Assembly (NCBI GenBank): GCA_041663425.1
Contig: JBAYMS010000004.1
Location: forward strand, 2,213-66,212
Source: Candidatus Omnitrophota bacterium
Lineage (GTDB): Bacteria > Omnitrophota > Gorgyraeia > 2-01-FULL-45-10
Reading direction: 5' to 3'
Length of the DNA stretch: 64,000 bases
This document shows, piece by piece, positions 10,946 to 31,218 of this stretch. Every line of letters starts with the position of its first letter. Position 1 is the first letter of the stretch. A program made the position numbers and the translations under genes. The notes under the pieces were generated by a model that was not told the DNA's origin, searched no databases, and saw nothing but the letters and a program-made list of their open reading frames with translations.

Positions 10946-11764
10946 ATGAATAATAAGAAACCATTTGCTAACTGGGTCGTGGATGAATGGGACGCCTTTA
11001 TCGAAGTATGGCGGAATAGACGTATGCTAGCAATTATTGTATTAGTAATAATTGTAGGGATAGTGGCATACTGGATTATAGATAAGGGGGCTATGGTTAG
11101 GATAATTAGTGATCTTAAAGCGCAGGTTGCTAAGATTCAGACAGAAAATAAAGAGCTTGCCGTAGAGAAGAATTTGCTTCGCATTGAAAATACTAGCTTA
11201 AAAGAAACTGTTGCACCCCTTCTTAAGCAAGCCGCCAAGGAATTTCCAGGAGAAGAAATTAATGAGTCGTTAAAAAAAATAGTTACTAGACTGAACGCAG
11301 TCGCACCGCTTAGTCAACCAATACGAGTGGCTACCGCAGCCATTGAAGTACGGATCAAGTCCGAAGAGAGTTTAAATAGTCATTTTATGGATCGGGGTGC
11401 TTATATTGCATTTGCTAAAGAAGGATCTGGTTTTGCTTTTGGAACACAAAAGGAAATATTCGTGATTATGAAATCTTTAGATTGTTTTGCTAATCAATTG
11501 GGAGAAGGGGAGGTTGCATATAAAGCACTCTGTAATATGGATGTTGGTAAGGGCATTACTGAAAAGCCCATCTCCCATCTTAATGACGCTAATTATATTG
11601 AAGTAGGATTTTCGCCGATGTTAAAAAAAAGTGATGTAGATGTAACGGGAGGGTCTATTGTTTGTACATTTAATAGTCTGGTTCGTGCAGAATTAAATAT
11701 TCCTCCACAGAAAATGTCTAATGGTGTAATTGTAATTCGCGATGCTAAAATATCTTTAAAGTAG
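10946..11764 (+). CDS. Hypothetical membrane-anchored coiled-coil protein (orphan, AT-rich, likely horizontally acquired)
   Basis: 272 aa; short cytoplasmic N-term, one TM helix (LAIIVLVIIVGIVAYWII), ~80-aa heptad/coiled-coil segment, ~150-aa C-terminal globular domain with no family I recognise; codon usage visibly more A/T-rich than neighbours. Confidence 0.6.
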   Translation: MNNKKPFANWVVDEWDAFIEVWRNRRMLAIIVLVIIVGIVAYWIIDKGAMVRIISDLKAQVAKIQTENKELAVEKNLLRIENTSLKETVAPLLKQAAKEFPGEEINESLKKIVTRLNAVAPLSQPIRVATAAIEVRIKSEESLNSHFMDRGAYIAFAKEGSGFAFGTQKEIFVIMKSLDCFANQLGEGEVAYKALCNMDVGKGITEKPISHLNDANYIEVGFSPMLKKSDVDVTGGSIVCTFNSLVRAELNIPPQKMSNGVIVIRDAKISLK

Positions 11765-11900
11765 TTGTTGGAAATTTAGCTCTGGAATTAGTGCATAGTT
11801 GAATGCTCGAGAGGGCTGTGTTTACGCGACGATGTGCGCCAGATTGAGCGAGGAAATTTTTCGACTCTGTAGTAGAAATTCCCGCAGGGATTTGTGACGA

Positions 11901-11983
11901 GCGGGGCGTTAAAATTTCGAGGCAGCGTACGAGAAATTTTACAGAGCAAATTTTTTACATGGCTGAAAAATTTGCGTCCCCGC
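11901..11983. repeat. Copy B (inverted) of the ~85-nt structured element; closing stem GCGGGG/CCCCGC, hairpin 11946-11975, second hairpin 11909-11940
   Basis: Reverse complement aligns with 10704-10789; flanked by short mutually inverted hairpins 11875-11896 and 11988-12009. Confidence 0.6.
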
Positions 11984-12035
11984 GAGGCACAATCCCGGAA
12001 GGGAATTCCTCGAGGGATGAAAATTTAGGAGTGAG

Positions 12036-13304
12036 ATGCTTTACGACATAGGATTTTTCATATTTTCACTGTTCTACTTGCCGACTTTGATATTCAAGGG
12101 CAAGCTGCATGGTGACTTTGGCGAAAGGTTCGGCTTTTACGGCAGGGAGAAGCGCGCGGCGCTTGCGCAGGCCAAGGGCGCGATATGGATACAGGCGGTG
12201 AGTGTCGGAGAAGTTGCGCTCTGCAGGAGCCTTGTTCCGATGATGCGCGAAAAGTTTCCGCAGCATCCGATAGTCTTTTCGACGATAACAAAGACAGGTA
12301 ATGAGCTTGCCAGGAAATTGTTTTCCAAAGATGCGGTGATCATATATTTCCCGCTCGACTTTTCGTTCGTTGTTAAAAAAGTGATCCGCATGATAAAACC
12401 GAAGATGTATGTTATGGTAGAGACGGAGATATGGCCCAACTTTCTTAAGACGATAGAACGCAATACGATCCCTGCCATTCTTATAAACGGAAGGATCTCG
12501 GATAAGTCCTTCGGGAAATATGAGATGGCGAGGCCGTTCCTTCAGAAGATAATAAAGAATATGAACTCTCTGTGCATGCAGTCGAAGACCGATGCGGACA
12601 GGATAATAAAGATGGGCGCTGCCGCTGAAAAAGTAAAAGTCACCGGCAACATGAAGTTCGACGTTCCGGCCAAGCCCATCCAGTCCTCAGGCGATGAGCT
12701 CAAGAAACAGCTTGGGCTCGAGGAGGGCGATGAGCTTCTTGTGGCGGGATCGACGCATCCGGGCGAGGAAGAGGCGGTTATTGATGCGTATCAGGATATT
12801 GTTAAAAAGATCCCCGGCCTTAAACTTCTGATAGCTCCGCGCCACATCGATCGCGCGGATGAGGTTGCGGAAGTCGCCAGGGGCTGCGGATTTAATCCTG
12901 TTAAATTGTCTGTCCTGCAGTCGGATGCCTCTAATTCCCAGATTTTCATATTGGATACAATAGGCCGCCTGAACGATTTCTATTCGATCGCATCGGCCGT
13001 ATTTGTTGGCGGCAGCCTTATACCGCACGGCGGACAGAACCCGATAGAGCCCGCTATTTATGGTAAGCCCGTGATATTCGGGCCGTATATGTTCAATTTT
13101 AAAGGTATCGCCGAAGCGTTTCTCAGCAAAGATGCGGCAATACGGGTTGATGCTGCAGGTGACCTGACTGCCGTCCTTTATAATATGCTGGCGAATAAAA
13201 ATAGACAGGCGGAGGTCGGCTTGCGCGCCAAAGAGGTTATTGCCGCAAATAGGGGTGCCACAGAAAACGTATTGAATGAAATGGGCAGGTTCCTGAATGC
13301 GTAA
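12036..13304 (+). CDS. waaA: 3-deoxy-D-manno-octulosonic acid (Kdo) transferase
   Basis: 422 aa; N-terminal membrane anchor, GT30 N-domain (IWIQAVSVGEV) and C-terminal GT-B domain; followed by lpxK. Confidence 0.9.
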   Translation: MLYDIGFFIFSLFYLPTLIFKGKLHGDFGERFGFYGREKRAALAQAKGAIWIQAVSVGEVALCRSLVPMMREKFPQHPIVFSTITKTGNELARKLFSKDAVIIYFPLDFSFVVKKVIRMIKPKMYVMVETEIWPNFLKTIERNTIPAILINGRISDKSFGKYEMARPFLQKIIKNMNSLCMQSKTDADRIIKMGAAAEKVKVTGNMKFDVPAKPIQSSGDELKKQLGLEEGDELLVAGSTHPGEEEAVIDAYQDIVKKIPGLKLLIAPRHIDRADEVAEVARGCGFNPVKLSVLQSDASNSQIFILDTIGRLNDFYSIASAVFVGGSLIPHGGQNPIEPAIYGKPVIFGPYMFNFKGIAEAFLSKDAAIRVDAAGDLTAVLYNMLANKNRQAEVGLRAKEVIAANRGATENVLNEMGRFLNA

Positions 13305-14334
13305 TTTTATTTATTCGCTCATGACCGATAAACGCAAAGGCGCGTTTTATTCTATTTTGAAATTTATACTTTATGCCGTTTCTCTCGCTTATGGAGCGGC
13401 TATCCTGGTCAGGCGGCTTTTTTATACTGTCGGGATATTTAAGTCCGAAAAGGTCCCTCTGAAAATTATATCAGTAGGAAATCTCACCCTGGGGGGTACG
13501 GGGAAGACGCCTTTCGTCATATGGCTTGTCGATATGCTGGATGAAGAGTTTGATAAAAAGGCGAGCGTTCTTATCCGCGGTTATGGCTGGGACGAGCAGA
13601 CGATGCTTAAACGAAAACTTCCTGACACACCTATCATGGTCGGCGAGGATAGGGCAAGGTCAGCTCACAAAGCGATAAAATTATATGGAAGCGACACAGC
13701 GGTGCTGGACGACGGTTTTCAGCACTGGGAGCTATCGCGCAATATCGATATAGTGCTGATAGATTCCCGCAACCCTTTTGGTAATGGATTTCTGTTTCCG
13801 CGCGGCGTTCTTAGGGAGACCAAGGAGGCGCTCAAGCGGGCATCGGTTGTTGTGTTTACGAAGACGGATAAAAAAAATGCAGAACTTGACAATGTAAAGA
13901 GAGAGATTAAAAATATAAACGATAATATTGTATTCCTGGAAGCGGTCCACAGGCCTTTTTATGTAAATGACCTAAAAGGCCGTAAAGACCGCCCTCTGGA
14001 ATTTTTGAAAGGGAAAAGGGTCGTCCTTCTTTCGAGCATAGGAGATCCGGGTTATTTTGCCGATACGGTCCGCTCTCTGGGGGCGGATATAGCAGAGCAT
14101 ATAATATTTGCAGATCATCATAATTACAAAGAGTCGGACGCGGAACTCATAGTGAAGCGCTGCAATGAGCGGAAGTTTGATTTTATTTTAACTACGGAAA
14201 AGGATGAAGTTAAATTGCGCAGGATGTCGCTGTCGTTTGCGGGTTATCCCGTAATGACGCTTGCTATAAAGATGGACATTCTTTCAGGGAAGGAGCTTTT
14301 AGTTGATAGATTACGCAGCTTATATACTCGTTAA
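13297..14334 (+). CDS. lpxK: Tetraacyldisaccharide 4'-kinase
   Basis: 345 aa; P-loop VGNLTLGGTGKTP characteristic of LpxK; overlaps waaA stop by 8 nt. Confidence 0.9.
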   Translation: MRNFIYSLMTDKRKGAFYSILKFILYAVSLAYGAAILVRRLFYTVGIFKSEKVPLKIISVGNLTLGGTGKTPFVIWLVDMLDEEFDKKASVLIRGYGWDEQTMLKRKLPDTPIMVGEDRARSAHKAIKLYGSDTAVLDDGFQHWELSRNIDIVLIDSRNPFGNGFLFPRGVLRETKEALKRASVVVFTKTDKKNAELDNVKREIKNINDNIVFLEAVHRPFYVNDLKGRKDRPLEFLKGKRVVLLSSIGDPGYFADTVRSLGADIAEHIIFADHHNYKESDAELIVKRCNERKFDFILTTEKDEVKLRRMSLSFAGYPVMTLAIKMDILSGKELLVDRLRSLYTR

Positions 14335-16249
14335 GGCGCTGAATAAAATATTCAGCATTGTGCCTATAAGCGTATCTTTGTGGCTGGGCAGGCGCATAGG
14401 CGACTTTGCTTTTTTTGTCAATAAAAAGCGGAGGCTCGTGGCGTATGCCAATCTGAAATCCGCGTTCGCATCTGAAAAGACACCTGCGGAATTACGGCAG
14501 ATCACCAAGAGAATTTACCGGAATATGGTCCAGACTTTTGTCGAGCTGCTCAACCTGACAAAGATAAACCGGAAGTATGTAGATAAATACGTCGAAGTCG
14601 TGAATATGGAACGCATACGGAATGCCGCGAAATCCGGCAGGGGGACGGTGCTTCTGACTGCCCATTTCGGCGACTGGGAACTGTCGAGCCTGGTGAGTTC
14701 AGTGGAAGGGTTTCCGATACTGGTCCTTGCCAGGGAGCAGAAGATGAAGCGGCTGAATGAGCTGCTGAACCAGCTTCGTGAATCCAACGGCTGCAAAGTT
14801 ATCAGGAAAGGGATGGACGTCCGGAATATACTTAAGGCGCTGCGCGGTAAAAATATTGTAGGCGTGCTGTCGGATCAGGATGCTGGTAAAAAAGGCATGT
14901 TCGTTGATTTTTTCGGCAGGCCGACATCCTGTCATTCCGGACCTTTCGAAATAGCAAAACATACAGATTCGCTGATATTGCCTAATTTTATAGTCCGCAC
15001 AGGCGGGCCATATCATAAGCTTTATCTTGAAGAATATATTGATTTCCGTAATACGAATAGTCCCGATGATATAAAAGAGAACCTGCAGAAGTTTGCGAAG
15101 CTTCTCGAAAGCTATGTCCGGAAGTATCCCGATCAGTGGCTATGGCTTCACAAGAGATGGAAATCTACTCCTGTCAGGACGACGCTCGTCCTGAATGACG
15201 GAAAGGCCGGTCATCTGAACCAGTCTCTGGCTGTCGCAAAAGAGCTTCGCAGGGCGCGCATGACGCAGGGCTTTAAAGCGGAAGATACAAATATAGTAGT
15301 AGTTGATGTAAAGTATAAGAGCAAATTTTCCAGGGCGATACTTACGGCCGCCTCGCTTTTTGCAGGCTGGCGCTGTCACGGCCGGATGGGTATTATGAAA
15401 TTCTGTCTCGAAGAAAACACGTATGAAACTTTAATGAAGACGTATTCGGAGTTCGTAATATCGTGCGGATCCGCAACTACGCCTGTAAATATTTTCATGT
15501 CAAAAGAGAACAACGCGAAAAATATAACTATAATGACGCCTATGCTTGCGCCATTTACCATGCGTAAATTTAAACTTGCTATAATTCCGCGCCATGATCA
15601 TCCCGCCCGGACAAAGAATGTGGTCGTGACCGAGATCGCCCCTAACCTGGTGGATGCGGACAGGATGAAACGTGATGCAGCCAGTCTTAAAGAACAGATA
15701 GGCGGCGGCGTCGGAGATTCTGTAGCGTTATTTATCGGCGGTGACAATCCGGAATTCTCGATGGCCAGAGATATTGTCAATTCAGCCATAGAGGGGGTAA
15801 CAGAATTTTGTGATCGCTCCGGAGCGTCTATTTTTGCAACGACATCAAGAAGGACATCGCCTGAGATCGAAGGTATTCTGAAGAACAGGCTGCAGAATTA
15901 TCCGAAATGTAAGTTCCTCGTGATAGCTAACGAAAAGAACTTTGATTTTACGGTAAGCGGTATGCTTGCGTCATGTAAGGTTGCAGTGGTCTCGGAGGAA
16001 TCGATATCTATGGTCTCGGAGGCCATCTCTGCAGGCAGGAAAGTTATTGTATTCCGCCTGTCGAAAAAGAATGACGCTGTGACTAAACATGAACGTGCGC
16101 TTAAGACGCTTGCCGATCAGGGGTATATTGCTATTGTTGAAGCGTCAGGGCTGGTCGCAGCGCTTGAGAAAGCCTGGAATGATAAAACGGCCGTAAAGCC
16201 GCCTGAAGATATGGACCGTATCTTCGAGGCGCTTAAAAGGTTGATTTAA
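14303..16249 (+). CDS. lpxL: Fusion protein: lipid A biosynthesis (Kdo2-lipid IVA) acyltransferase LpxL/HtrB family (N-term ~290 aa) + ELM1/DUF1022-like putative GT-B domain (C-term ~350 aa)
   Basis: 648 aa; N-domain has the Lip_A_acyltrans hallmarks (LTAHFGDWEL, ...YPDQWLWLHKRWK); C-domain begins VLNDGKAGHLNQSLAVAKEL resembling bacterial Mito_fiss_Elm1 (PF06258) proteins; TTG start, overlaps lpxK 3' end by 32 nt. Confidence 0.7.
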   Translation: MIDYAAYILVKALNKIFSIVPISVSLWLGRRIGDFAFFVNKKRRLVAYANLKSAFASEKTPAELRQITKRIYRNMVQTFVELLNLTKINRKYVDKYVEVVNMERIRNAAKSGRGTVLLTAHFGDWELSSLVSSVEGFPILVLAREQKMKRLNELLNQLRESNGCKVIRKGMDVRNILKALRGKNIVGVLSDQDAGKKGMFVDFFGRPTSCHSGPFEIAKHTDSLILPNFIVRTGGPYHKLYLEEYIDFRNTNSPDDIKENLQKFAKLLESYVRKYPDQWLWLHKRWKSTPVRTTLVLNDGKAGHLNQSLAVAKELRRARMTQGFKAEDTNIVVVDVKYKSKFSRAILTAASLFAGWRCHGRMGIMKFCLEENTYETLMKTYSEFVISCGSATTPVNIFMSKENNAKNITIMTPMLAPFTMRKFKLAIIPRHDHPARTKNVVVTEIAPNLVDADRMKRDAASLKEQIGGGVGDSVALFIGGDNPEFSMARDIVNSAIEGVTEFCDRSGASIFATTSRRTSPEIEGILKNRLQNYPKCKFLVIANEKNFDFTVSGMLASCKVAVVSEESISMVSEAISAGRKVIVFRLSKKNDAVTKHERALKTLADQGYIAIVEASGLVAALEKAWNDKTAVKPPEDMDRIFEALKRLI

Positions 16250-16254
16250 ACTAA

Positions 16255-18387
16255 ATGAATATACTGCAGATATTACCATCGCTGGATGTGGGAGGGGTTG
16301 AGACCGGGACGGTTGACCTGGCGAAATATCTTGTCGCCCATGGACACAAGGCCATAACGGTTTCAAGCGGCGGCCGTCTTGTAAGGGAACTCGACTCGAT
16401 AGGCGCGCGTCATTATAATCTGCCCGTAGGTAAAAAGTCTCTCATATCGATCATACAAATGATAAAAGAGCTGCGCGAGATAATCCGCAAAGAGGATATC
16501 GATGTAGTTCATGCGCGTTCCCGCGTGCCTGCGCTTATAGCCTATTTTGCCTGCAAATCATCCGGCAGGGCATTTATCACTACCGCTCACGGGTATTATA
16601 AGAAACACATGATGAGCGAGGCTATGGGCTGGGGTAAATACGTTATAGTTGCTTCTAATGTGATGGCCAAGCACATGATGAATAATTTTAAAGTCCCGTA
16701 TGACAGGATACGGCTTATCCCCCGCGGCGTGGACCTTGAAAGATTTACATTCAGAGATCCATCTTCCCGCCGGTCAGAATGGTTTGTTGTGGGGATGGTA
16801 TCGAGGATAACGCCTCTTAAAGGTCATGCCGATTTTGTCAGGGCCATATCCATATTAAGCCGCCAGATCCCAAACCTGAAAGCCGTCATAGTCGGCAGTG
16901 CACCGAAGGCAAAATATAAAGAGGATATCGAGCTTTTGATAAGAAGGCTGGGCCTTTCCAATATGATCGAGTTTCTTCCGGCTACGCATGATGTGCCGAA
17001 TATAATGCGCGGACTGGACGTGCTCGTATCTGCCACTACCACACCGGAAGCTTTCGGCAGGGTCATCATAGAGGCTCAGGCATCGGGCGTTCCGGTAGTT
17101 GCTACGCAGGTAGGCGGGGTAGTAGACATTATAGACGACAGGAAGACGGGGCTTCTGTGCCATCCTCAGAACCCGAAAGAGATGGCCGAAAAGATCCTGG
17201 AATTGCATAAAGATAAGGGGTTGTGGACGAGCCTTGCGGTTGAATCCAAAAAAAACGTGGAGACTTATTTCAATTTAAATAAGATGATGAATAGGACGAT
17301 CGCTGTCTACGAAGAAGCGATTGAAACTTTGAATATACTTGTAATAAAGATAAGTGCGATCGGTGATGTGATATTGAGCGTTCCCTCTCTTAAAGCGATA
17401 CGTGAAAAATATCCTAAGGCAAACATAAAGGTCCTGGTCGGTGTCCAGGCTCGGGAAGTGCTCGACAGGTGCCCGTATATCAATGACAGGATAGTCTGTG
17501 ATTTTAAGGGAAAGCATCACGGGCTGTTAGGCCTGTGGCGGCTTGGAGAAGAATTGCGCGCGTCGTGTTTTGACATAGTGATAGACCTCCAGAATTCCAA
17601 GAAGAGCCATATCCTTGCAGCGCTGAGTTTTGCACCCCTTAGATACGGATACGACAATAGGAAATTATCATTCCTGCTTAACAAGAGATTGAGAGACGAC
17701 GCTCCGCATCTTGACCCTGTAGAGCATCAGTTCAGGACGCTCAGAATGGCGGGCATAAAGCCTCAGGATAAATGTCTGGCACTTTGGCCGTCAGGTGCCG
17801 AGGAAAAACAGGTTGAGAAACTTTTAACCGACGGTTGGATGAAACCTACCACGGAGCTTGTCGGTATAAACGTCAGGGCGTCTGCCAGGTGGGTTACAAA
17901 GAACTGGCCGATAGCGAATATCGCCGAGCTGTGTGACAGGCTTGCCAGGGAATTTAATGTCAGGGTTGTTCTGACCGGCGCTGAAGAGGATGCGGGATTT
18001 GCCCAGGCGATAGCAAAGATGAGCAAATCTAAACCTCTGAACGCTGCAGGGAAGACCAGCGTCCTCGAGCTTGCCGCCCTGATCAGCCGTTTCAAAGTTT
18101 ATTTAACACCCGATTCCGCGCCCATGCATATAGCTACGGCGGTCGGGACTCCATGCATCGCATTATTTGGGCCTACGGATCCGGCGCGCCATGCGGTTCC
18201 GGTTAAGACGTGCATAGTGATCAGCAAAAAAGATGAATTGAAATGCAGTCCGTGCTACAGCCCCACTTGTGTAAAAAATTTCATGTGTATGAAAAAGATA
18301 TCGGTGGAAGAAGTCCTTGAGGCCATGCGGCCATATCTTAAAGAAGAGGCGAGAGTTGAAAGTACTGCAGATAACAACGCACATTAA
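16255..18387 (+). CDS. Fusion glycosyltransferase: GT4 (N-term ~350 aa) + GT9 ADP-heptose:LPS heptosyltransferase-like domain (C-term from ~17335)
   Basis: 710 aa; N-domain GT4 features (E...G.PVVAT..GG motif VIIEAQASGVPVVATQVGG); C-domain ILVIKISAIGDVILSVPSL...DSAPMHIATAVGTPCIALFGPTDP typical of WaaC/WaaF family; C-terminal Cys4 motif. Confidence 0.8.
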   Translation: MNILQILPSLDVGGVETGTVDLAKYLVAHGHKAITVSSGGRLVRELDSIGARHYNLPVGKKSLISIIQMIKELREIIRKEDIDVVHARSRVPALIAYFACKSSGRAFITTAHGYYKKHMMSEAMGWGKYVIVASNVMAKHMMNNFKVPYDRIRLIPRGVDLERFTFRDPSSRRSEWFVVGMVSRITPLKGHADFVRAISILSRQIPNLKAVIVGSAPKAKYKEDIELLIRRLGLSNMIEFLPATHDVPNIMRGLDVLVSATTTPEAFGRVIIEAQASGVPVVATQVGGVVDIIDDRKTGLLCHPQNPKEMAEKILELHKDKGLWTSLAVESKKNVETYFNLNKMMNRTIAVYEEAIETLNILVIKISAIGDVILSVPSLKAIREKYPKANIKVLVGVQAREVLDRCPYINDRIVCDFKGKHHGLLGLWRLGEELRASCFDIVIDLQNSKKSHILAALSFAPLRYGYDNRKLSFLLNKRLRDDAPHLDPVEHQFRTLRMAGIKPQDKCLALWPSGAEEKQVEKLLTDGWMKPTTELVGINVRASARWVTKNWPIANIAELCDRLAREFNVRVVLTGAEEDAGFAQAIAKMSKSKPLNAAGKTSVLELAALISRFKVYLTPDSAPMHIATAVGTPCIALFGPTDPARHAVPVKTCIVISKKDELKCSPCYSPTCVKNFMCMKKISVEEVLEAMRPYLKEEARVESTADNNAH

Positions 18388-19459
18388 TATTGGCGGCATA
18401 GCCAATTATATATTAAATCTTTCAGAGGCTCTTATAGTCAAAGACGTAAATGTTGTAGTGGCGTCAAGCGGCGGGAATCTCGAAGGAGAGCTGTGCGCGC
18501 GCAATATACCTCACATGCGCATTGACATAAAAACAAAGTTTGAGTTTGGGCCGAAGGTTATTTCCTCCGCTTTCCGGCTGGCAAATATCATAAAGCGTGA
18601 AAAGGTTGATATAATACATGCGCACACAAGGGTGTCCCAGGTTGCCGCGTTTTTAGCATCGCTTATTACAGGCGTGCCGTATGTTACTACCTGTCATGGT
18701 TATTTCAAGGTGCGGTCGAGGAAGATATTTGATACATGGGGATGTAAGGTCATAGCTATCAGTGATGCAGTGAAACGCCATTTAATAGATGATCTTGGAG
18801 TATCCGGCAGCCGGATAGATCTTATATATAGCGGTGTGGATGTGGACAAATTCCGTCGCAAGTATTCAGAAGATGAAAAAACCGCGATAAGGAACGATCT
18901 TGGTCTGAAAGACGCACCGGTAATAGGGACGATAGGCAGATTGTCTCAGGTTAAAGGACAGAGGTATCTGGTACAGGCTATGGCTGAAATAGTCAGCCGT
19001 AAAAAAGGCGCTCAGTGCCTGATTGTCGGCGACGGCGAAGAGAAGCTCGCTCTGGAAAATCTGGCCAGGTCTATGAATATAAGGGACGCTATTTACTTTG
19101 TCCCATCCTATATAGATACCCCCAGACTTCTGGCAGTCATGGATGTTTTTGTATTTCCTTCGGTTAAAGAGGGGCTGGGCATAGCGCTTTTGGAGGCCAT
19201 GGCTGCAGGCAGAGCTTGTGTAGCTTCCGATATAGGCGGCATAAGCGATATCATAAAAGATCCGTCCTTAGGCATTCTTGTGCCGGTGGGAGGAAGTAAG
19301 GAAATCTCAGATTCTGTAATCAAGTTTCTCGATGATGGAGTCTTAAGGCAGGCAACGGGTGATAACGCCAGAAAGCTTGTTGCTGAACAGTTTTCACTTG
19401 ATGCTATGAGCGATAATGTCATAAAGTTTTACAAAGGAGTTGTTGATGAAAAGAAGTAG
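18317..19459 (+). CDS. Glycosyltransferase family 4
   Basis: 380 aa; GT4 C-terminal EGLGIALLEAMAAGRACVASDIGG motif; true start probably TTG at 18356 (LKVLQITTHINIGG) to limit overlap with upstream gene. Confidence 0.8.
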   Translation: MRPCGHILKKRRELKVLQITTHINIGGIANYILNLSEALIVKDVNVVVASSGGNLEGELCARNIPHMRIDIKTKFEFGPKVISSAFRLANIIKREKVDIIHAHTRVSQVAAFLASLITGVPYVTTCHGYFKVRSRKIFDTWGCKVIAISDAVKRHLIDDLGVSGSRIDLIYSGVDVDKFRRKYSEDEKTAIRNDLGLKDAPVIGTIGRLSQVKGQRYLVQAMAEIVSRKKGAQCLIVGDGEEKLALENLARSMNIRDAIYFVPSYIDTPRLLAVMDVFVFPSVKEGLGIALLEAMAAGRACVASDIGGISDIIKDPSLGILVPVGGSKEISDSVIKFLDDGVLRQATGDNARKLVAEQFSLDAMSDNVIKFYKGVVDEKK

Positions 19460-20243
19460 CCCTGGGAATATGGCCTCAGGTAGAAAGCGGACGATTATAG
19501 CGGGCACTGTCGTTTTTTTTGTATTAGCGATAACGGCAGCGTTGCTCATCGAGACCTCCTATGTCGTCCCTGTTCTGATGTATCATTCGATAGACAATAA
19601 TGATAAAGCGAGCAAGCTCTCTGTCTCTCCGGAAAGTTTTGAACGGCAGATGGAATTTTTACATAAAAATAAGTATAATGTGATTCCTCTGGAGAGAGCC
19701 GTTTCGTACATAAATAAAAAAGAGAGACCGCCTTTTAAGACCATAGCCATAACTTTGGATGATGGGTTTGAAAATAACTATACAGCGGCCTATCCGATAC
19801 TTAAAAAATATAATATACCGGCAGCTATATTTGTCATAGTGGATAAAGTGGGCAGCCCCGGTTTTTTAACCTGGCCGCAGATCAAAGAGATGTCCGATTC
19901 CGGGCTTATTACTATAGGGAGCCATACGCGTACTCATTTCTGGCTTTCAGGATCAGATGATAAATTTCTTAAAAATGAACTGGTTGATTCCAAAAAGATT
20001 CTCGAAGAGAAATTGGGTAAGAAAGTAAATATTTTCTGCTATCCAATGGGTTTTTTCGACACAAATTCAAAAAAAGCTGTGGAGGCTGCCGGCTATGCCT
20101 GCGCTGTGTCAACAAATCCCAGCAACGTTTCCCCTGAAGACATTTTTGCTATAAAGCGTATTAAGATATCGCGCTCTTCGGATAATATGATTGTTTTCTG
20201 GGGAGAGATCAGCCGGCTGTATACATGGTTCAAAAGGAACTGA
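19446..20243 (+). CDS. Polysaccharide deacetylase (carbohydrate esterase family 4), membrane-anchored
   Basis: ~265 aa; N-terminal TM helix then NodB-like motifs (TLDDGFENNY, HTRTH); ATG 19446 preceded by RBS aaaggag. Confidence 0.8.
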   Translation: MKRSSPGNMASGRKRTIIAGTVVFFVLAITAALLIETSYVVPVLMYHSIDNNDKASKLSVSPESFERQMEFLHKNKYNVIPLERAVSYINKKERPPFKTIAITLDDGFENNYTAAYPILKKYNIPAAIFVIVDKVGSPGFLTWPQIKEMSDSGLITIGSHTRTHFWLSGSDDKFLKNELVDSKKILEEKLGKKVNIFCYPMGFFDTNSKKAVEAAGYACAVSTNPSNVSPEDIFAIKRIKISRSSDNMIVFWGEISRLYTWFKRN

Positions 20244-20250
20244 TATTAAA

Positions 20251-21273
20251 ATGAAACGAATCCTTATAGTAAATGTGAACTGGATAGGCGACACATTATT
20301 CGCTACACCTTTTATACGCGCGGTGCGCGAAGCGTATCCTGACAGTTATATTGCATGCTTAAGCCATCCAAGATGCACAGAGATGCTGGAGCTGAATCCC
20401 TGTCTGGATGAGCTCGTGATTTATGATGAGGAAGGTGCCCATAAGAGTTTGTTGGGAAAACTGAGACTTGTGTTTTCTCTGAGGAAGCGGAAATTTGATA
20501 CGGCGTTTCTTCTGCATAGGTCATTTACTAAAGCCCTTATCGTATTTTTAGCGGGCGTAAAAGAGCGCATAGGCTATCCTACGAAGAGGCGGGGTATGCT
20601 GCTTACAAAAATGGTGGATTCGCCGGCTGAAGAACTTCATAAAGTGGAATATTTTTTAAATATCGCGGCATCCTGCGGATTGAAGCCGTCGAGCCGGTCG
20701 TATGAATTTTTTATAAATGAGGCGCATAAAAAATTCGTAGGCGACCTTTTGCGCTCAGAGGGCATTTCTGAAAATGATACGGTAGTTGTCCTGTGTCCGG
20801 GCGGTAACTGGGACCCAAAACGATGGCCTAAGGAGAGCTTTGCCAAACTGGCAGATGCGTTATCCGAAAAATGTGCAGCGAAGATCATCATCTCCGGAGC
20901 GAAGAAGGATGTGGTGCTTGCCGGAGAGATAAAAAATATGATGAAAGCGAAGCCGGTCATCACCGCAGGCAAGACAACGCTTAAACAGCTCGGGGCGTTA
21001 TTCCAGAGGGCGGACCTTGTTGTGGCAAATGATACCGGGCCTATGCATCTTTCTGTTGCGATGAAGGCGAATACGATAGCTCTTTTTGGACCTACTTCAC
21101 CGCAGCTTACAGGTCCATATGGAGAAGGCCGCTACAAAGTCATCTTTAAGAACGACACCTGCGATGTCCCGTGCTACGATTTTACATGCACCGATAACCG
21201 GTGCATGGCAGCGATAAAGGTCGCAGATGTGCTGAATGAAGCTGTCTCGACGTTGGAGGCAAAGTGCAGATAG
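20251..21273 (+). CDS. Glycosyltransferase family 9 (ADP-heptose:LPS heptosyltransferase-like)
   Basis: ~340 aa from ATG 20251 (MKRILIVNVNWIGDTLFATP); DTGPMHLSVAM...FGPTSP; C-terminal Cys4 motif CDVPCYDFTCTDNRC. Confidence 0.85.
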   Translation: MKRILIVNVNWIGDTLFATPFIRAVREAYPDSYIACLSHPRCTEMLELNPCLDELVIYDEEGAHKSLLGKLRLVFSLRKRKFDTAFLLHRSFTKALIVFLAGVKERIGYPTKRRGMLLTKMVDSPAEELHKVEYFLNIAASCGLKPSSRSYEFFINEAHKKFVGDLLRSEGISENDTVVVLCPGGNWDPKRWPKESFAKLADALSEKCAAKIIISGAKKDVVLAGEIKNMMKAKPVITAGKTTLKQLGALFQRADLVVANDTGPMHLSVAMKANTIALFGPTSPQLTGPYGEGRYKVIFKNDTCDVPCYDFTCTDNRCMAAIKVADVLNEAVSTLEAKCR

Positions 21274-22241
21274 ATAAGTCTCAGATAAACCGTATACTTG
21301 TTATAACATTGAGCAATGTCGGCGATATCATTCTGACGACGCCGGTCATAAATGCTCTTTCTAAAGAATTTCCCGGAGTAAGGATTGACGTTATGGTAGG
21401 GCCTCAGGGACGTGAGATATTTGAAAAAGATCCGCATATCTTCAAGGTTATTATTTACGATAAACATCTGCCCATAGGCGAGAAGCGCAGGCTGCAATTG
21501 AAATTAAAAAAGCTGCACTATGATCTCGTGGTTGACATACGAAATACCGTGTTTCCAATGCTCATAGCTCCTAAATACAGAACAGCGACGATACAGAGGT
21601 TTCCGCGCGCTGCCATGCATAGCAGATCCCGCCATCTGCACAGGCTTAAATCCTTGGGTATCAATAATAGCGAAGACCTGTCATATATACACATTACAAA
21701 AGAAGACGAAGACTACACTGATAAGCTGATCAAAGAGAACGGTATTATGGATCCTGTGGTTGTTATTAATGCCGGTGCTAAGAGCCATCTGAAACGATGG
21801 TTTGCCGAAGGGTTTGCCGAAGTTGCCGACAGGCTTATATCAGAGTGCAAAGCGAGCGTCGTATTTGTGGGATTAAAAGAAGACGAGGCTATCGTGAACG
21901 ATATAGTTTCAAAGATGAGACACAAACCGTTTGTTCTAGTTAATAAGACAAATATACGGCAGCTTGCAGCGCTTTTAAAACGTTCCAAGCTTCTTATAAC
22001 CAATGACAGCGCTCCTCTCCATTTGGGTTGCGCAGTAGGCGTTAAAGTCGCGGCGTTGTTCGGCCCTACGGATCCGCAAAAATACGGCCCGACCGGAGAA
22101 TTCGATGTAGTTATAAAAGAAAAATTGTCATGCGCTCCGTGCGAGAAGGCGGAGTGCGTCCGGAATTATGAGTGCATGAAATTGATTACACCCGATTCAG
22201 TGTTTGACGCCGCGAAGATGCTTCTGGAGGGGTATGAGTAA
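21264..22241 (+). CDS. Glycosyltransferase family 9 (heptosyltransferase-like)
   Basis: 325 aa; GTG start overlapping upstream stop; ILVITLSNVGDIILTTPV...NDSAPLHLGCAVG...FGPTDP; C-terminal CAPCEKAECVRNYEC. Confidence 0.85.
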   Translation: MQIDKSQINRILVITLSNVGDIILTTPVINALSKEFPGVRIDVMVGPQGREIFEKDPHIFKVIIYDKHLPIGEKRRLQLKLKKLHYDLVVDIRNTVFPMLIAPKYRTATIQRFPRAAMHSRSRHLHRLKSLGINNSEDLSYIHITKEDEDYTDKLIKENGIMDPVVVINAGAKSHLKRWFAEGFAEVADRLISECKASVVFVGLKEDEAIVNDIVSKMRHKPFVLVNKTNIRQLAALLKRSKLLITNDSAPLHLGCAVGVKVAALFGPTDPQKYGPTGEFDVVIKEKLSCAPCEKAECVRNYECMKLITPDSVFDAAKMLLEGYE

Positions 22242-23295: not shown

Positions 23296-23303
23296 ACAAC
23301 AAA

Positions 23304-23332
23304 AAAGACCCGCAGTTTCGCTGGTCTTTTCC
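23304..23332 (+). terminator. Probable rho-independent terminator ending the waaA..GT9 operon
   Basis: AAAGACC-12 nt loop-GGTCTTT followed by T-run, 9 nt after the stop codon at 23295. Confidence 0.45.
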
Positions 23333-23571
23333 GGAGGTGATAGGCCTCAATGGCTCTCGCTATCATTTCCCTCTCGTATATCTAAATAAAGTATGCCACA
23401 TAATATTGAAAAAGGCAATAGCGGAAGGGTATTTTTATTTATCAAACGTTTAACAAAGATTTTTTTGTGGGGATTATTGCTATTCATTGTTGTTTCGACC
23501 GTAAGGGAAATGCGTAACGATAAAGTGGTTTCTAAAAATTTATCAAAACAGGCCTCATTTAAGGAGCTAAA

Positions 23572-24645: not shown

Positions 24646-24673
24646 CGTGTAAAGCCGGACTCGGGAGGGTTCA

Positions 24674-25141: not shown

Positions 25142-25189
25142 CATATCTTGCTGACTTCATGCTAAAATATGCGCTTCAAAGGAAATGAT

Positions 25190-26128: not shown

Positions 26129-26131
26129 AAT

Positions 26132-27136: not shown

Positions 27137-27155
27137 CTTAAAAGGAGCAAAAACA

Positions 27156-27905
27156 GTGAAAGTGATAGGAGTCATACCGGCGCGATGGGGTGCGACAAGG
27201 TTCGAAGGTAAGGTTTTGGCTAACCTTTTAGGAAAACCTGTAATACAGCATGTCTGGGAAAATGCGAAAAAGGCAAAGACGCTCGACGAGCTTATAGTTG
27301 CGTGCGATGATGAGCGTATAATGAAAGTGGTGGAAGGTTTCGGCGGTAAGGCTGTTTACACATCTCCCGACCAGCCGTCGGGTACGGACAGGCTCGCCGA
27401 AGTTGTTAACCCGCTCGATGTTGATATTGCTGTTAATATTCAGGGTGACGAGCCTCTCATTAAACCTATCATAATAGATTCGCTTGTTATCGCACTTCAA
27501 AGCGATAAAGAAGCCCAGATGGCAACGGTTATCAAAAAAATAGAAGATGACGCGGAGCTTACGAATTCCAACGTTGTCAAAGCCATCGTCGATAAGAACG
27601 GTTACGCTATATACTTTTCCCGCTATGCTATACCTTACAACAGGACAAGTGAGGTCGATGAATCGAAACGCCCCACATATTATAAGCACATAGGCCTTTA
27701 TGCTTTTACGAAAGATTTTCTTTTCACTTTCAGGAATCTCCCGAAGTCAGCGCTTGAGAATGCTGAAAAACTTGAACAGTTAAGGGTTATTGAGAACGGA
27801 TACAAGATAAAAATAGTTGAGACAAAGCTCGATACGATAGGTATCGACAGGCCTGAAGATCTTAAGAGGGCAGAGATAGCCTTACTAAAGGAAAGAGAGA
27901 AATAG
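27156..27905 (+). CDS. kdsB: 3-deoxy-manno-octulosonate cytidylyltransferase (CMP-Kdo synthetase)
   Basis: 249 aa; VIGVIPARWGATRFEGK N-terminus; GTG start with RBS aaaggag. Confidence 0.9.
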   Translation: MKVIGVIPARWGATRFEGKVLANLLGKPVIQHVWENAKKAKTLDELIVACDDERIMKVVEGFGGKAVYTSPDQPSGTDRLAEVVNPLDVDIAVNIQGDEPLIKPIIIDSLVIALQSDKEAQMATVIKKIEDDAELTNSNVVKAIVDKNGYAIYFSRYAIPYNRTSEVDESKRPTYYKHIGLYAFTKDFLFTFRNLPKSALENAEKLEQLRVIENGYKIKIVETKLDTIGIDRPEDLKRAEIALLKEREK

Positions 27906-27907
27906 TA

Positions 27908-28723
27908 GTGAAAGAGATCAAGGTTGGCAGGATAAAGATAGGCGGGAACAACCCGTTTGTTCTGATCGCAGGGCCCTGCGTTATAGAATCCGAAGCGAGC
28001 GTTATGCGCCATGCCAAAGCTCTTAAGACGATCGCAGGCAGGCTTGGCATTCCGTTTATCTATAAGTCGAGCTACGACAAGGCTAACAGGACTTCTGTAG
28101 ATTCTTTCCGCGGCCCGGGGCTTAAGAAGGGCCTGGCCATACTTAACAGAGTTAAGGAAGAGCTTAATCTGCCGATATTATCCGATGTCCACTGCAAGGC
28201 AGATATAAAGGAAGCTGCAAAAGTTCTCGATGTTATTCAGATACCGGCTTTTCTTTCGCGCCAGACAGATCTTATCCTGGCCGCTGCCCAGACGGGCAAG
28301 GCGGTGAATATAAAGAAGGGGCAGTTTCTCGCCCCATGGGATATGAACAATGTAATAAAGAAAATAGAATCTATAGGGAACAAAAATATCATACTGACCG
28401 AGCGGGGTGTGAGTTTTGGATATAATAATTTAGTGAGCGATTTCAGGGCCATACTTATAATGAAAGAATCCGGTTACCCTGTCATATATGATGCGACGCA
28501 TTCCGTCCAGATGCCGGGCGGCATGGGCAATAAGTCGGGCGGGGAGAGCCGGTTTGTCCCTTATCTTTCCTCTGCGGCGATCGCATGCGGAGCTAATGGT
28601 ATATTTGTTGAAGTTCATGAAGATCCTGCCAGAGCGCTTAGCGATGGCCCGAACATGATCAAACTGAAAGACCTTGAAAGTATTCTCATAAAATTGAAAA
28701 AGATAGAGAAAGCCGCAAAGTAA
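27908..28723 (+). CDS. kdsA: 2-dehydro-3-deoxyphosphooctonate aldolase (Kdo-8-phosphate synthase)
   Basis: 271 aa; PFVLIAGPCVIES and KSSYDKANR(T)S motifs; GTG start. Confidence 0.9.
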   Translation: MKEIKVGRIKIGGNNPFVLIAGPCVIESEASVMRHAKALKTIAGRLGIPFIYKSSYDKANRTSVDSFRGPGLKKGLAILNRVKEELNLPILSDVHCKADIKEAAKVLDVIQIPAFLSRQTDLILAAAQTGKAVNIKKGQFLAPWDMNNVIKKIESIGNKNIILTERGVSFGYNNLVSDFRAILIMKESGYPVIYDATHSVQMPGGMGNKSGGESRFVPYLSSAAIACGANGIFVEVHEDPARALSDGPNMIKLKDLESILIKLKKIEKAAK

Positions 28724-28733
28724 TCTAAAACAT

Positions 28734-29693
28734 ATGTCGAAAAATATAGCAAAAGAAGTTTTGAAAATAGAGCGCGATGCGCTTACGAGCCTTATTGGCA
28801 GGGTTGGTGCCGATTTTGACGATATAATAAATGTCATCTGCCGGACTAAGGGGCGGGTCATCATTACCGGCATGGGTAAACCCGGTTTTATAGCTCAGAA
28901 GATCTCTGCCACGATGTCGTCTACCGGTACGCCGTCTCTTTATCTGCATCCGGCAGAGGCTCTCCACGGCGATCTTGGCCGTGTCACAAAAGACGATCTC
29001 ATAATAGCACTTTCAAATAGCGGCGAAACAGAAGAGGTTGTTAAGCTTCTGCCGATAATAAAGAAGATCGGCGCTAAGCTTGTAGCGATGACAGGCAACG
29101 TCAAGTCAACTCTCGGAAAATTCGCAGATCATGCTATCGACGTTTCGGTAAAGAGGGAGGCGTGTTCGCTTGGTCTGGCTCCGACTACTTCTACTACGGT
29201 GATGCTTGCGATGGGAGACGCTATCGCGGTTGCTCTTCTGGAAAAGAAAGGTTTTAAGGAAAAAGATTTTGCGTTATTTCACCCTGGTGGTATTTTAGGC
29301 AAGCGCCTTATACTTAAAGTGGCTGACATCATGAGAAAAGGTTCCGACAATCCGGTGGTGGATGAGAATACTCCAGTAAAAAAAGTGCTCGTTATGATAA
29401 CTAAAGCCCGTGCGGGGTCAGCAAGCGTTGTTGATTCTAAGAAGAGGCTGGTCGGGATATTTACAGATGGTGACCTGAGGCGGCATGTCGAAAGCGACCC
29501 GCGCTTAATCGAGAAAAAAGTCAAAGACGTCATGACAAAAAATCCGACTTATATAAAGAAAGAAAAATTGGCTGCAGAAGCGTTTGATATCCTGCGCTCA
29601 AAAAGGATAGACGAGCTTCCGGTGGTCGATGATAAAAAGCGGCCCATAGGTTTACTGGATGTCCAGGATCTATTAAAAGCAGGTCTCGTATGA
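28734..29693 (+). CDS. kdsD: Arabinose-5-phosphate isomerase (SIS domain + tandem CBS)
   Basis: 319 aa; SIS motif ITGMGKPGFIAQKISATMSSTGTPS and C-terminal CBS pair. Confidence 0.9.
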   Translation: MSKNIAKEVLKIERDALTSLIGRVGADFDDIINVICRTKGRVIITGMGKPGFIAQKISATMSSTGTPSLYLHPAEALHGDLGRVTKDDLIIALSNSGETEEVVKLLPIIKKIGAKLVAMTGNVKSTLGKFADHAIDVSVKREACSLGLAPTTSTTVMLAMGDAIAVALLEKKGFKEKDFALFHPGGILGKRLILKVADIMRKGSDNPVVDENTPVKKVLVMITKARAGSASVVDSKKRLVGIFTDGDLRRHVESDPRLIEKKVKDVMTKNPTYIKKEKLAAEAFDILRSKRIDELPVVDDKKRPIGLLDVQDLLKAGLV

Positions 29694-30220
29694 TTCAGCC
29701 GGAAATTATTGAAAAACTGAAAAATGTAAAAATACTCATCGTCGATATAGACGGCGTTATGACCGACGGGCGTATAGTATATAGCGGCTATGGCGAAGAG
29801 CTGAAATTTTTTGACGTGCAGGACGGTTTCGGCATAACTCTCCTGCGCAGGGCCGATATTAAAACCATAATCATAACCGCAAAAAAATCAAAGATAGTAA
29901 AACATAGGGCGCGTGATCTTAAAGTAGTCAAAGCTTACCAGGGTTTTATGGACAAACTAACCCCTTTTAACGATGTCTTGAAGCGTTTCGGTGTCCGGCC
30001 GGAGGAGATCTGTTTTATAGGTGATGACCTTATAGATATTCCGGTATTAAAACGTGTCGGATTGGCAGTGGCTGTTCCAAACGCGGTCGAAGAAGTTAAA
30101 AAATCAGCCCATTTTACCACTGTGAATAAAGGCGGCCGCGGCGCTGTCCGCGAGATCTGCGATCTCATCCTCAAATCCCAGGACAAGTGGGATCTCGTTA
30201 CATCCAAATATTTTAAGTAA
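29690..30220 (+). CDS. kdsC: Kdo-8-phosphate phosphatase (HAD family)
   Basis: 176 aa; HAD motif I ILIVDIDGVMTDG and GDDLIDIPV motif; overlaps kdsD stop. Confidence 0.85.
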   Translation: MIQPEIIEKLKNVKILIVDIDGVMTDGRIVYSGYGEELKFFDVQDGFGITLLRRADIKTIIITAKKSKIVKHRARDLKVVKAYQGFMDKLTPFNDVLKRFGVRPEEICFIGDDLIDIPVLKRVGLAVAVPNAVEEVKKSAHFTTVNKGGRGAVREICDLILKSQDKWDLVTSKYFK

Positions 30221-30290
30221 GCGAATTAAGCAAGTTAGCCTGCGATTTCCCGAGGATTATTGACGAGGAAAAATTTTACCCCAAGACTTA

Positions 30291-30319
30291 TTGACAAAGC
30301 CCCACCGCTATTATATATT
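30291..30319 (+). promoter_or_regulatory. Near-consensus sigma70 promoter TTGACA-N17-TATATT, ending 8 nt before the ATG of the second lpxL (leaderless-like arrangement)
   Basis: Hexamers and 17-nt spacer read directly at 30291-30296 and 30314-30319. Confidence 0.45.
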
Positions 30320-30327
30320 GTATCTCT

Positions 30328-31218
30328 ATGAAATTTAAATTAAGGCGTTATTTCATTTATTATATAGGCCGGGCGGTTGCGTTTGTCTTTACCATAATTC
30401 CGCTTAAAGTAGGTCTTGCCATAGCATCCGGTGTGGGATCTTTCGTATTTTACATCCTTCCGCGTTACAGGAACCTTACCATAGAAAACCTTAAGACAGC
30501 GTTCGGCAATGAAAAATCTGATAAGGAGCTTGAAGATATCGCGAAACGTGTGTTCCAGAACCTGGGCAAGAATGCTGTCGAGCTGGTAAACCTGCCTAAG
30601 TTCAATAAAGCAAGGATGGATAAATTTGTCAGGTTCAGGAACCGTGAAAGGCTGGACAAGGCATACGAGAAGGGCAAAGGTATAATAGTCCTTACAGCTC
30701 ACTTCGGAAGCTGGGAGCTTATGGCGGCGGCTTTGCGCGAAAATAACTGTCCCGGCGTTACGATCGGCAGGAGGATATATTTTAAGAAGTACGACGATTT
30801 TCTCAATAAGCTGCGCAGATCGCGCGATGTTGAAGTCATATACCGCGATGAATCTCCCAGAAAAATGCTCAGGACGCTTAAGCAGAATTGGATAGTCGGG
30901 ATAGTTGCAGACCAGGATGTCGATTCGGTTGACGGCGTGTTTGTTAACTTCTTCGGTCATCAGGCATATACGCCCAGCGGACCTGTGGTGCTTGCCAGAG
31001 CGAGCGGCGCTGTCCTTCTACCGGTATTTATTATCAGGGAAGGCGATTGGCACACAATAGCTATAGAAGAGCCGGTTGAATTGGCCGATACAGGCAACAA
31101 AGAAGCGGATCTAATTTCCAATACCCAGAAATGGTCGAATGTGGTAGAATCTTATGTGAGAAAATATCCTGATCAATGGGTGTGGATGCATCGGAGATGG
31201 AAGACAAAAAAACAATGA
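30328..31218 (+). CDS. lpxL: Lipid A biosynthesis acyltransferase (LpxL/LpxM/HtrB family), second paralog
   Basis: 296 aa; N-terminal membrane anchor, LTAHFGSWEL and YPDQWVWMHRRWK motifs. Confidence 0.85.
   Translation: MKFKLRRYFIYYIGRAVAFVFTIIPLKVGLAIASGVGSFVFYILPRYRNLTIENLKTAFGNEKSDKELEDIAKRVFQNLGKNAVELVNLPKFNKARMDKFVRFRNRERLDKAYEKGKGIIVLTAHFGSWELMAAALRENNCPGVTIGRRIYFKKYDDFLNKLRRSRDVEVIYRDESPRKMLRTLKQNWIVGIVADQDVDSVDGVFVNFFGHQAYTPSGPVVLARASGAVLLPVFIIREGDWHTIAIEEPVELADTGNKEADLISNTQKWSNVVESYVRKYPDQWVWMHRRWKTKKQ

Follow-up and report, generated by a model that had tools for sequence, protein, structure and literature searches.

Late acyltransferases of lipid A are normally stand-alone proteins of about 300 amino acids (aa). 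A stretch of 64,000 nt from a Candidatus Omnitrophota bacterium (assembly GCA_041663425.1, contig JBAYMS010000004.1, positions 2,213 to 66,212 of the forward strand; hereafter the window) contains a 648-aa open reading frame (ORF) in which an LpxL-type acyltransferase domain runs on into a domain of the ELM1 family. The locus raises the question of whether the two domains are truly one protein and, if so, what such a protein does in the assembly of lipopolysaccharide (LPS). The two domains form one polypeptide that belongs to both families, its key residues are conserved, and so is the order of the genes in which it lies. The domain architecture is new, its two components are known kinds of enzyme, and the proteins themselves are already present in public databases.

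Domain content and junction of the fusion

A sequence-only reading of the window had proposed an LpxL acyltransferase fused to an ELM1 domain within one 648-aa ORF, and a Pfam search bore this out, with both domains far above their cut-offs. PF03279 (Lip_A_acyltrans) covers aa 4-287 (E 8.6e-54, 183.2 bits against a cut-off of 22.3; model positions 13-294 of 295), and PF06258 (Mito_fiss_Elm1), the family suggested for the C-terminal half, covers aa 302-619 (E 8.4e-48, 163.5 bits against a cut-off of 27; model positions 1-280 of 304). The frame is uninterrupted from the TTG at 14303 through the stop codon that ends at 16249 (Table 1). In the window, the first 32 nt of the fusion gene overlap lpxK, and the overlap is also present in related loci; as the 3' end of lpxK holds both the start of the fusion and its Shine-Dalgarno sequence, translational coupling of the two genes is suggested.

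The junction reads ...WLWLHKRWKSTPVRTTLVLNDGKAGH... and contains neither a stop nor a frame change. It joins the C-terminal WxHKRWK motif of the LpxL domain to the first strand of the GT-B domain, such that the LpxL motif passes straight into the N-terminal motif of ELM1 (WLWLHKRWK-STPVRTT-LVLNDGKAGH). Of 123 aligned proteins (see below), 121 have precisely 11 residues between K287 and D299. No in-frame ATG, GTG or TTG is found at residues 270-304, and a separate start of the second half in this region is therefore impossible. An AlphaFold2 model of the full-length fusion has a mean predicted local distance difference test score (pLDDT) of 87.5 and a predicted template modelling score (pTM) of 0.82, with the pLDDT falling to 66 at aa 281-290, the junction region. 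The high pTM of the whole chain and the fixed length of the junction suggest that the two domains are held in a defined arrangement.

Conservation of the fusion across genomes

A word-indexed search across 5.8 billion proteins gave 801 hits at E <= 1e-10. Of the 120 clusters listed, more than 110 show 100% query coverage, 59-100% identity and both Pfam domains, and the named sources among these 120 are Candidatus Omnitrophota/Omnitrophica. When 1.84 billion cluster representatives were scanned exhaustively with phmmer, 18,932 hits were obtained, of which the best 150, one per 50%-identity cluster, were examined. Of these, 122 are 600-700 aa long, nearly all with one match that spans both domains and with identities down to approximately 31%, and the named divergent representatives are likewise Omnitrophota. 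A scan of GTDB species-representative genomes with the pattern EESISMVSEA identified 546 relatives. Both domains are matched in each of the best 80 loci, from residues 1-3 to 646-648 in 57 of them, with a few cut by a contig end.

The record titles of the 80 loci name Omnitrophota or Omnitrophica in 62 cases, 'uncultured Planctomycetia/Planctomycetales' in 16 and 'uncultured bacterium' in two. All 18 records of the latter two kinds (L052, L055, L062-L065, L070-L072, L074, L082, L089, L101 and others) are third-party (TPA) assemblies with the Omnitrophota gene order. Omnitrophota is a member of the Planctomycetes-Verrucomicrobia-Chlamydiae (PVC) group, and the Planctomycetia/Planctomycetales labels may therefore be placeholders, or the fusion may reach another PVC lineage. 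The fusion looks widespread in Candidatus Omnitrophota and is apparently lineage-wide.

This distribution bears directly on whether the fusion is an artefact of sequencing or assembly, in which adjacent genes were merged via a frameshift or a lost stop codon. The probability of such an artefact is negligible and the hypothesis was rejected: a single stop-free frame is present in 79 of the 80 independent genomes, in line with the frame continuity claimed by the sequence-only reading, hundreds of full-length homologues come from separate projects, the junction is fixed at 11 residues, and a second gene would have no in-frame start codon. No evidence in favour of an artefact was found, and the one interrupted frame is broken outside the junction. 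This sole break, in locus L065 (6001-7965) of an 'uncultured Planctomycetia' metagenome-assembled genome, is a TGA within the conserved GHLxQS helix of the ELM1 domain (GHLKQS*AV). L065 was considered as a natural split gene and rejected, given that the stop sits in this helix and away from the junction; the TGA may reflect an error in sequencing, a pseudogene or recoding of the codon.

A residue alignment was made of the window protein and the 122 divergent fused representatives (n=123; 29-46% identity to the query, mean column identity 31%). H121, E126, R159, D191 and W281 in the first half and D299, G303, H304, G389, H431, G479, S515, R516 and R517 in the second half are invariant in all 123 proteins. 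Given this invariance across divergent proteins, both halves appear to be active enzymes that purifying selection maintains.

The acyltransferase half

Judged by its sequence, the N-terminal half is certainly a member of the late lipid A acyltransferase family. The family profile, searched against PDB sequences, matches LpxM from Acinetobacter baumannii (5KN7, E 3.4e-38) and PatA (approximately 6e-24). H121 and E126 of the HX4E dyad line up with H122 and E127 of A. baumannii LpxM (HFGTWE), and PDB entry 5KNK is the E127A variant of this enzyme, deposited as 'catalytic residue substitution'. For the acyltransferase half, a Foldseek search returned 5kn7 (E 5.9e-13) and PatA (template modelling (TM) score 0.80-0.84, normalised to target), and the modelled fold is thus LpxM/PatA-like. 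The segment at aa 8-26 is the top Kyte-Doolittle 19-aa window of the fusion and is helical in the AlphaFold2 model, and a score of at least 1.6 is reached in the N-terminal region of 60 of the 123 family members. The segment is consistent with a membrane anchor of the LpxL/LpxM type.

The ELM1 half and its likeness to KdoT

The AlphaFold2 model of the ELM1 domain alone (pLDDT 93.1) shows alternating strands and helices in two Rossmann-like halves. Its Foldseek neighbours in the PDB are MurG, MGD1, uridine diphosphate (UDP)-GlcNAc 2-epimerases and glycosyltransferases of families GT4 and GT9 (TM 0.5-0.6), and the GT-B-like fold that had been predicted for this domain can be assigned to the model with confidence. 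A donor assignment based on the fold was rejected, as the search gave generic GT-B neighbours only, and a PDB sequence search with the ELM1 half matched no solved structure.

The sequence-only reading described the function of the ELM1 family as unassigned, a view that has since been overtaken. KdoT from A. baumannii (A1S_2903) was reconstituted in vitro, as reported in 2025, and is a transferase that adds a third residue of 3-deoxy-D-manno-oct-2-ulosonic acid (Kdo), KdoIII, from cytidine monophosphate (CMP)-Kdo to Kdo2-lipid IVA (PMC12856342, PMC10936431). KdoT joins KdoIII alpha-(2->5) to KdoI, prefers tetra-acylated Kdo2-lipid IVA, cannot start Kdo addition on lipid IVA and requires R180 of its SRRT motif, as determined by mutagenesis; a distant homologue from Rickettsia complements ΔkdoT (PMC12856342). 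The enzyme has no predicted transmembrane helix, occurs in soluble and membrane fractions, and was reported by the same authors to be structurally similar to WaaA (PMC12856342, PMC10936431). The kdoT gene of A. baumannii is located in the outer-core locus next to ilvE (PMC4172580). A1S_2903 KdoT is equated here with GtrOC1, because the first gene of that locus, GtrOC1, belongs to the ELM1 family.

The KdoT sequence was recovered by translating the published cloning and mutagenesis primers, back-translating the N-terminus to a pattern and scanning metagenomes. The scan yielded 44 Acinetobacter-type loci, two of which (L029 and L033) contain all four primer-derived segments exactly and encode a 296-aa KdoT that scores 202.8 bits against PF06258. 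In BLASTP, the alignment of the ELM1 half with KdoT runs over the full length (25% identity over 302 columns, E 6e-16), and D299/H304, H431/D432 and R516/R517 fall in register with D8/H13, H109/D110 and R179/R180 of KdoT.

Proposed function

The fusion is read here, with confidence somewhat better than even, as a membrane-anchored, bifunctional LPS-assembly enzyme that acylates and glycosylates the product of WaaA; the two activities, the acceptor, its topology in the membrane and possible coupling or channelling are putative. WaaA would produce Kdo2-lipid IVA, the shared acceptor of both domains. The LpxL/LpxM-type domain, with its H121/E126 dyad, would put an acyl chain on this lipid while the N-terminal hydrophobic helix keeps the domain at the cytoplasmic face of the membrane, and the ELM1 GT-B domain would add a sugar at the Kdo region of the same lipid, with SRR(T) positioning the donor. 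The sugar would most likely be a further Kdo from CMP-Kdo, by analogy with KdoT; this donor assignment is tentative, and the remaining probability lies mainly on another nucleotide sugar. The short fixed junction would give an otherwise anchor-less GT-B enzyme a permanent membrane site via the LpxL helix, one lipid molecule would be presented to two active sites at fixed stoichiometry, and acylation would be coupled, both stoichiometrically and spatially, to the first extension of the core that follows WaaA. LpxL from E. coli requires Kdo residues on its acceptor, and a Kdo-dependent transfer from acyl-ACP to lipid IVA by the fusion would fit its genomic context, with waaA and lpxK beside it.

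A further step, and a doubtful one, is that the fusion is a hard-wired machine with two active sites, in which acylation and glycosylation proceed without release of the substrate or the acylation state gates glycosylation; in a variant, a non-Kdo sugar would be added at an inner-core position not yet seen. If true, this would be a built-in checkpoint that ties the completion of lipid A to core extension, where A. baumannii apparently reaches a similar outcome only through separate enzymes that depend on each other in vivo, for reasons as yet unexplained.

Points against the proposal and rival explanations

Several observations weigh against the proposed function. The KdoT single mutants D8A, H13A, H109A and D110A are still active (PMC12856342), and the importance of the shared motifs is thus unproven. 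Neither WaaA nor any other CMP-sugar transferase is among the top 50 Foldseek PDB neighbours of the ELM1 domain. The Kyte-Doolittle score of the predicted anchor, 1.65, is borderline, and the defined inter-domain arrangement is a prediction drawn from one model score, the pTM. O5 of KdoI, the attachment site of KdoT, is usually occupied by heptose in heptose-containing cores, and four GT9 domains are encoded at the locus. The acyltransferase half reaches none of the NCBIfam equivalog cut-offs (PRK08419 176.6 against 248, TIGR02207 113.8 against 297.8 and TIGR02208 83.3 against 336), and for this reason LpxL specificity cannot be assigned over LpxM specificity, or the reverse. The comparison with a second group of Acinetobacter paralogues, given below, adds to these points.

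The missed equivalog cut-offs, together with the PatA matches of the N-terminal domain in sequence, in Foldseek and in NCBIfam (PRK07920, PatA-like, 101 bits), would fit an enzyme that acts on a glycolipid other than lipid A. PatA is a phosphatidylinositol-mannoside acyltransferase, and a PatA-like domain would in this case acylate a head group just built by the GT-B domain. This is very improbable, given that lipid A acyltransferases head both the sequence and the profile matches (LpxM 5KN7, E 3e-38; PRK08419, 176.6 bits), that the gene is apparently coupled in translation to lpxK with waaA upstream in essentially all related genomes, and that the sole characterised bacterial ELM1 enzyme uses Kdo2-lipid IVA (PMC12856342).

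The activity of the KdoT mutants in candidate catalytic bases (PMC12856342) has a different bearing if the ELM1 domain is inert and serves as a scaffold or regulator that tethers or regulates the acyltransferase or recruits core enzymes, much as plant ELM1 is an adaptor for dynamin-related proteins (PMC10936431). D299, G303, H304, H431 and S515-R516-R517 are, however, invariant in 123 proteins at approximately 31% column identity, as residues of an active site typically are; KdoT has been proven to be an enzyme and relies on the same SRRT arginine (PMC12856342), and the GT-B fold is intact and confidently modelled. An inert domain is accordingly given only a very slight probability.

A second ELM1-family paralogue lies approximately 2.7 kb from kdoT in six of the Acinetobacter-type loci (L025:10964.., L034:3631.., L004, L015, L028 and L043). 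After start trimming these proteins are 342-348 aa long, with one copy shortened to approximately 275 aa. From their length and locus position, they are probably of the GtrOC14/19/22 type, and several Mito_fiss_Elm1 proteins, including GtrOC14/19/22, are predicted outer-core transferases (Kenyon et al. 2014, PMC4172580).

The second paralogues carry [ST]TSRRT and DGxxGH and lack IPxHD. As the group carries SRRT, this is a motif of the family rather than a signature of Kdo transfer, and SRRT was rejected as proof of a CMP-Kdo donor. Profile comparison by hhalign scores the fused domain equally against KdoT (275.6, E 4e-40) and against the paralogue group (269.6, E 8e-39), and KdoT against the paralogues scores 140.7. 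When a KdoT hidden Markov model (HMM) and a paralogue HMM were run on the fused domains, the median scores were 61.8 and 70.1 bits, respectively, with 62.5 and 76.8 for the window protein, and the paralogue HMM gave the higher score in 77 of the 123 fused proteins. Orthology to KdoT is not supported, since both methods place the fused domain equidistant from the two groups, and the donor sugar is therefore not secured either. Within the family, the fused domain appears to be less derived and about as far from KdoT as from the paralogue group.

These comparisons bear on an alternative with the same bifunctional architecture, in which the donor is not CMP-Kdo (e.g. adenosine diphosphate (ADP)-heptose, UDP-hexose, UDP-hexuronic acid or UDP-N-acetylhexosamine (UDP-HexNAc)) or the acceptor is a later core intermediate. 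The fused domain scores slightly better on the paralogue HMM, and an insert of approximately 30 aa and a length of approximately 350 aa are common to it and the paralogues, unlike the 296-aa KdoT; the presence of SRRT in both groups, the predicted outer-core role of several family members (PMC4172580) and a locus that is rich in GT9 and GT4 genes and has an ADP-heptose kinase point the same way. On the other hand, IPxHD, GSxT and E[DE]S[IV]SMVxEA are shared by the fused domain and KdoT and are all absent from the second paralogues, and the mean identity of the fused domains is 24.5% to KdoT and 20.6% to the paralogues. Fusion to an enzyme that uses Kdo2-lipid IVA and a position after waaA-lpxK favour an early, Kdo-proximal step, the distant Rickettsia homologue still complements ΔkdoT (PMC12856342), and no paralogue has a biochemically defined donor. 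Another donor or a later acceptor is possible but, on balance, unlikely, and the acylation and glycosylation of the WaaA product remains the preferred reading.

Gene neighbourhood of the fusion

The order waaA-lpxK-fusion-GT4::GT9 (710 aa)-GT4-GT9-GT9 is present in nearly all 80 related loci. The statement of the sequence-only reading that the family is often found beside waaA/lpxK was confirmed within the Omnitrophota lineage only; kdoT of A. baumannii lies in the outer-core locus instead. That reading also linked the fusion to modification of lipid A and the inner core, a link that the analysis supports. The next gene is a second fusion in the array, with a GT4 domain at aa 12-323 and a GT9 heptosyltransferase domain (PF01075) at aa 428-673, and a contiguous match of approximately 2.1 kb at this position in nearly all related Omnitrophota loci indicates that this fusion is also conserved. 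The array in the window then continues with a polysaccharide deacetylase gene and three GT9 genes up to 23295, after which come a gap of 277 nt, ychF and two more genes without a link to LPS.

Further downstream lie an ADP-heptose pathway kinase, which is a separate HldE domain I rather than a bifunctional HldE, and the kds genes, such that the full CMP-Kdo pathway is encoded in the gene array of the fusion. The unfused LpxL paralogue that follows is 38% identical to the fused LpxL domain, and after it come an LptA-like gene (below the model cut-off) and lptB. Its existence, as claimed by the sequence-only reading, is clear, but its placement in the same operon is not supported, because it lies 14 kb downstream, beyond the 277-nt gap, ychF and two non-LPS genes, and has its own promoter-like site; 'same-strand LPS gene array' is an accurate term for the fusion together with the region of the unfused LpxL. 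The promoter-like site resembles that of sigma-70 (TTGACA-17-TATATT, 30291-30319, + strand, 11/12 match), is the strongest in 11700-31400 and lies directly 5' of the unfused LpxL gene. It ends 9 nt before the ATG at 30328, and the mRNA, if the site is real, would be almost leaderless.

Within the array, the gene at 25169-26128 (+) encodes a GSU2086-family protein (432.7 bits), and the ORF at 24674-25141 (+, 155 aa) has no NCBIfam match at the thresholds used, as is also the case for the ORF at 10946-11764 (+, 272 aa) that flanks the array. Nearly all long ORFs across the window (1-64000) are on the + strand, GC skew is positive in each 2-kb bin and the cumulative skew rises monotonically, a combination that fits a long, co-directional, leading-strand gene array.

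Table 1. Coordinates in the window of the fusion gene, its domains and motifs, and the neighbouring LPS genes
Feature	Position	Strand	Basis
waaA, Kdo transferase (GT30)	12036..13304	+	PF04413 E 9.7e-61; NCBIfam WaaA models; conserved 5' position
lpxK, tetraacyldisaccharide 4'-kinase	13297..14334	+	PF02606 E 1.4e-74; TIGR00682 179.8 bits against cut-off 91.95; synteny
Shine-Dalgarno AAGGAG, 7 nt 5' of TTG, within lpxK 3' end	14290..14295	+	Sequence reading
Fusion ORF, 648 aa, TTG start, stop included	14303..16249	+	ORF listing; two Pfam domains; full-length homologues
LpxL-type late lipid A acyltransferase domain, aa 4-287 (PF03279)	14312..15163	+	Pfam; PDB sequence match; Foldseek
N-terminal hydrophobic segment, aa 8-26, putative membrane anchor of LpxL domain	14324..14380	+	Kyte-Doolittle; AlphaFold2
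HFGDWE, HX4E catalytic dyad H121/E126	14663..14680	+	Invariant 123/123; aligned with HFGTWE of A. baumannii LpxM
Fixed-length junction, aa 288-298, STPVRTTLVLN	15164..15196	+	Homologue alignment; AlphaFold2; start-codon scan
ELM1/GtrOC1/KdoT-family GT-B domain, aa 292-648 (PF06258 aa 302-619)	15176..16246	+	Pfam; AlphaFold2; Foldseek; KdoT alignment
DGKAGH motif, D299/H304 (KdoT D8/H13)	15197..15214	+	KdoT alignment; D299, G303, H304 invariant 123/123
IPRHD motif, H431/D432 (KdoT H109/D110); missing from second Acinetobacter ELM1 paralogue group	15584..15598	+	H431 123/123; D432 122/123
TTSRRT motif, S515 R516 R517 T518 (KdoT SRRT, R179/R180, implicated in donor positioning)	15839..15856	+	S, R, R 123/123; T 119/123
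EESISMVSEA motif, C-terminal Rossmann half	15995..16024	+	Near-invariant S567, S569, M570, E573; KdoT counterpart TEDSVSMVFEA
GT4::GT9 fusion, 710 aa, next gene	16255..18387	+	PF13439/PF00534 and PF01075; TIGR02195 154.1 bits against cut-off 134.6
ADP-heptose pathway kinase, stand-alone HldE domain I, 334 aa	26132..27136	+	TIGR02198 above cut-off
CMP-Kdo pathway: kdsB 27156-27905, kdsA 27908-28723, kdsD 28734-29693, kdsC 29690-30220	27156..30220	+	NCBIfam above cut-off (kdsB, kdsA, KpsF/GutQ-family isomerase, KdsC family)
Second, unfused LpxL-family paralogue	30328..31218	+	PF03279 E 5.1e-55

Annotation and significance

Public annotation describes the protein by halves: 647-aa Omnitrophota proteins are named 'ELM1/GtrOC1 family putative glycosyltransferase' at NCBI and 'KDO2-lipid IV(A) lauroyltransferase' at JGI. 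The literature searches turned up no publication that describes a fusion of LpxL with ELM1, and none on the lipid A of Omnitrophota. Bacterial proteins annotated as 'mitochondrial fission ELM1' were enigmatic until KdoT was characterised in late 2025, and the fusion, which comes from an uncultivated and distant phylum, is an independent piece of 'Rosetta-stone' evidence that the ELM1 family acts at the Kdo2-lipid IVA stage beside late acylation. It also widens the range of the family from Acinetobacter and Rickettsia to Omnitrophota, and a natural tether between an acyltransferase and a glycosyltransferase could aid structural work on how a peripheral GT-B enzyme contacts its lipid A acceptor. 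Fusions of enzymes from the same pathway are common and both halves are of known families, and so the current picture is not overturned and the fusion holds no mechanistic surprise.

Comparison with known systems

Plant ELM1, the namesake of the family, shares PF06258 with the fused domain but acts in eukaryotes as an adaptor for dynamin-related proteins and is not known to be a glycosyltransferase (PMC10936431), and is uninformative for the bacterial function. WaaA (KdtA, GT30) is closer in kind, as a GT-B enzyme that transfers Kdo from CMP-Kdo onto lipid IVA-type acceptors and is encoded two genes 5' in the same array. It belongs to a different Pfam family (PF04413) from the ELM1 half and does not appear among the first 50 Foldseek matches of that domain in the PDB, and, unlike KdoT, it initiates Kdo addition on lipid IVA.

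The N-terminal half resembles LpxL, LpxM and LpxP (e.g. LpxL from E. coli and LpxM from A. baumannii, 5KN7/5KNK) in the coverage of PF03279 over the full domain, the HX4E dyad, a similar fold, an N-terminal hydrophobic segment and a lpxK/waaA neighbourhood. It differs in that the known enzymes stand alone, whereas the fused domain carries a C-terminal GT-B domain; it also falls below the equivalog cut-offs, with neither acyl-chain nor positional specificity assignable, and the Omnitrophota window holds a second, unfused paralogue.

The C-terminal half has two relatives in Acinetobacter. The second ELM1 paralogue is alike in its PF06258-type sequence, DGxxGH, [ST]TSRRT, similar length, insert of approximately 30 aa and equal profile score, but it is a stand-alone, predicted outer-core transferase that lacks IPxHD, GSxT and E[DE]SxSMVxEA. 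KdoT is a stand-alone protein of 296 aa without a membrane anchor, encoded in an outer-core locus next to ilvE, whereas the fused domain is approximately 350 aa long with an extra insert of approximately 30 aa, lies behind an LpxL domain and is encoded after waaA-lpxK. The two nevertheless share PF06258, an end-to-end alignment, invariant motif equivalents, a GT-B fold and a genomic link to the genes of LPS core assembly and CMP-Kdo synthesis.

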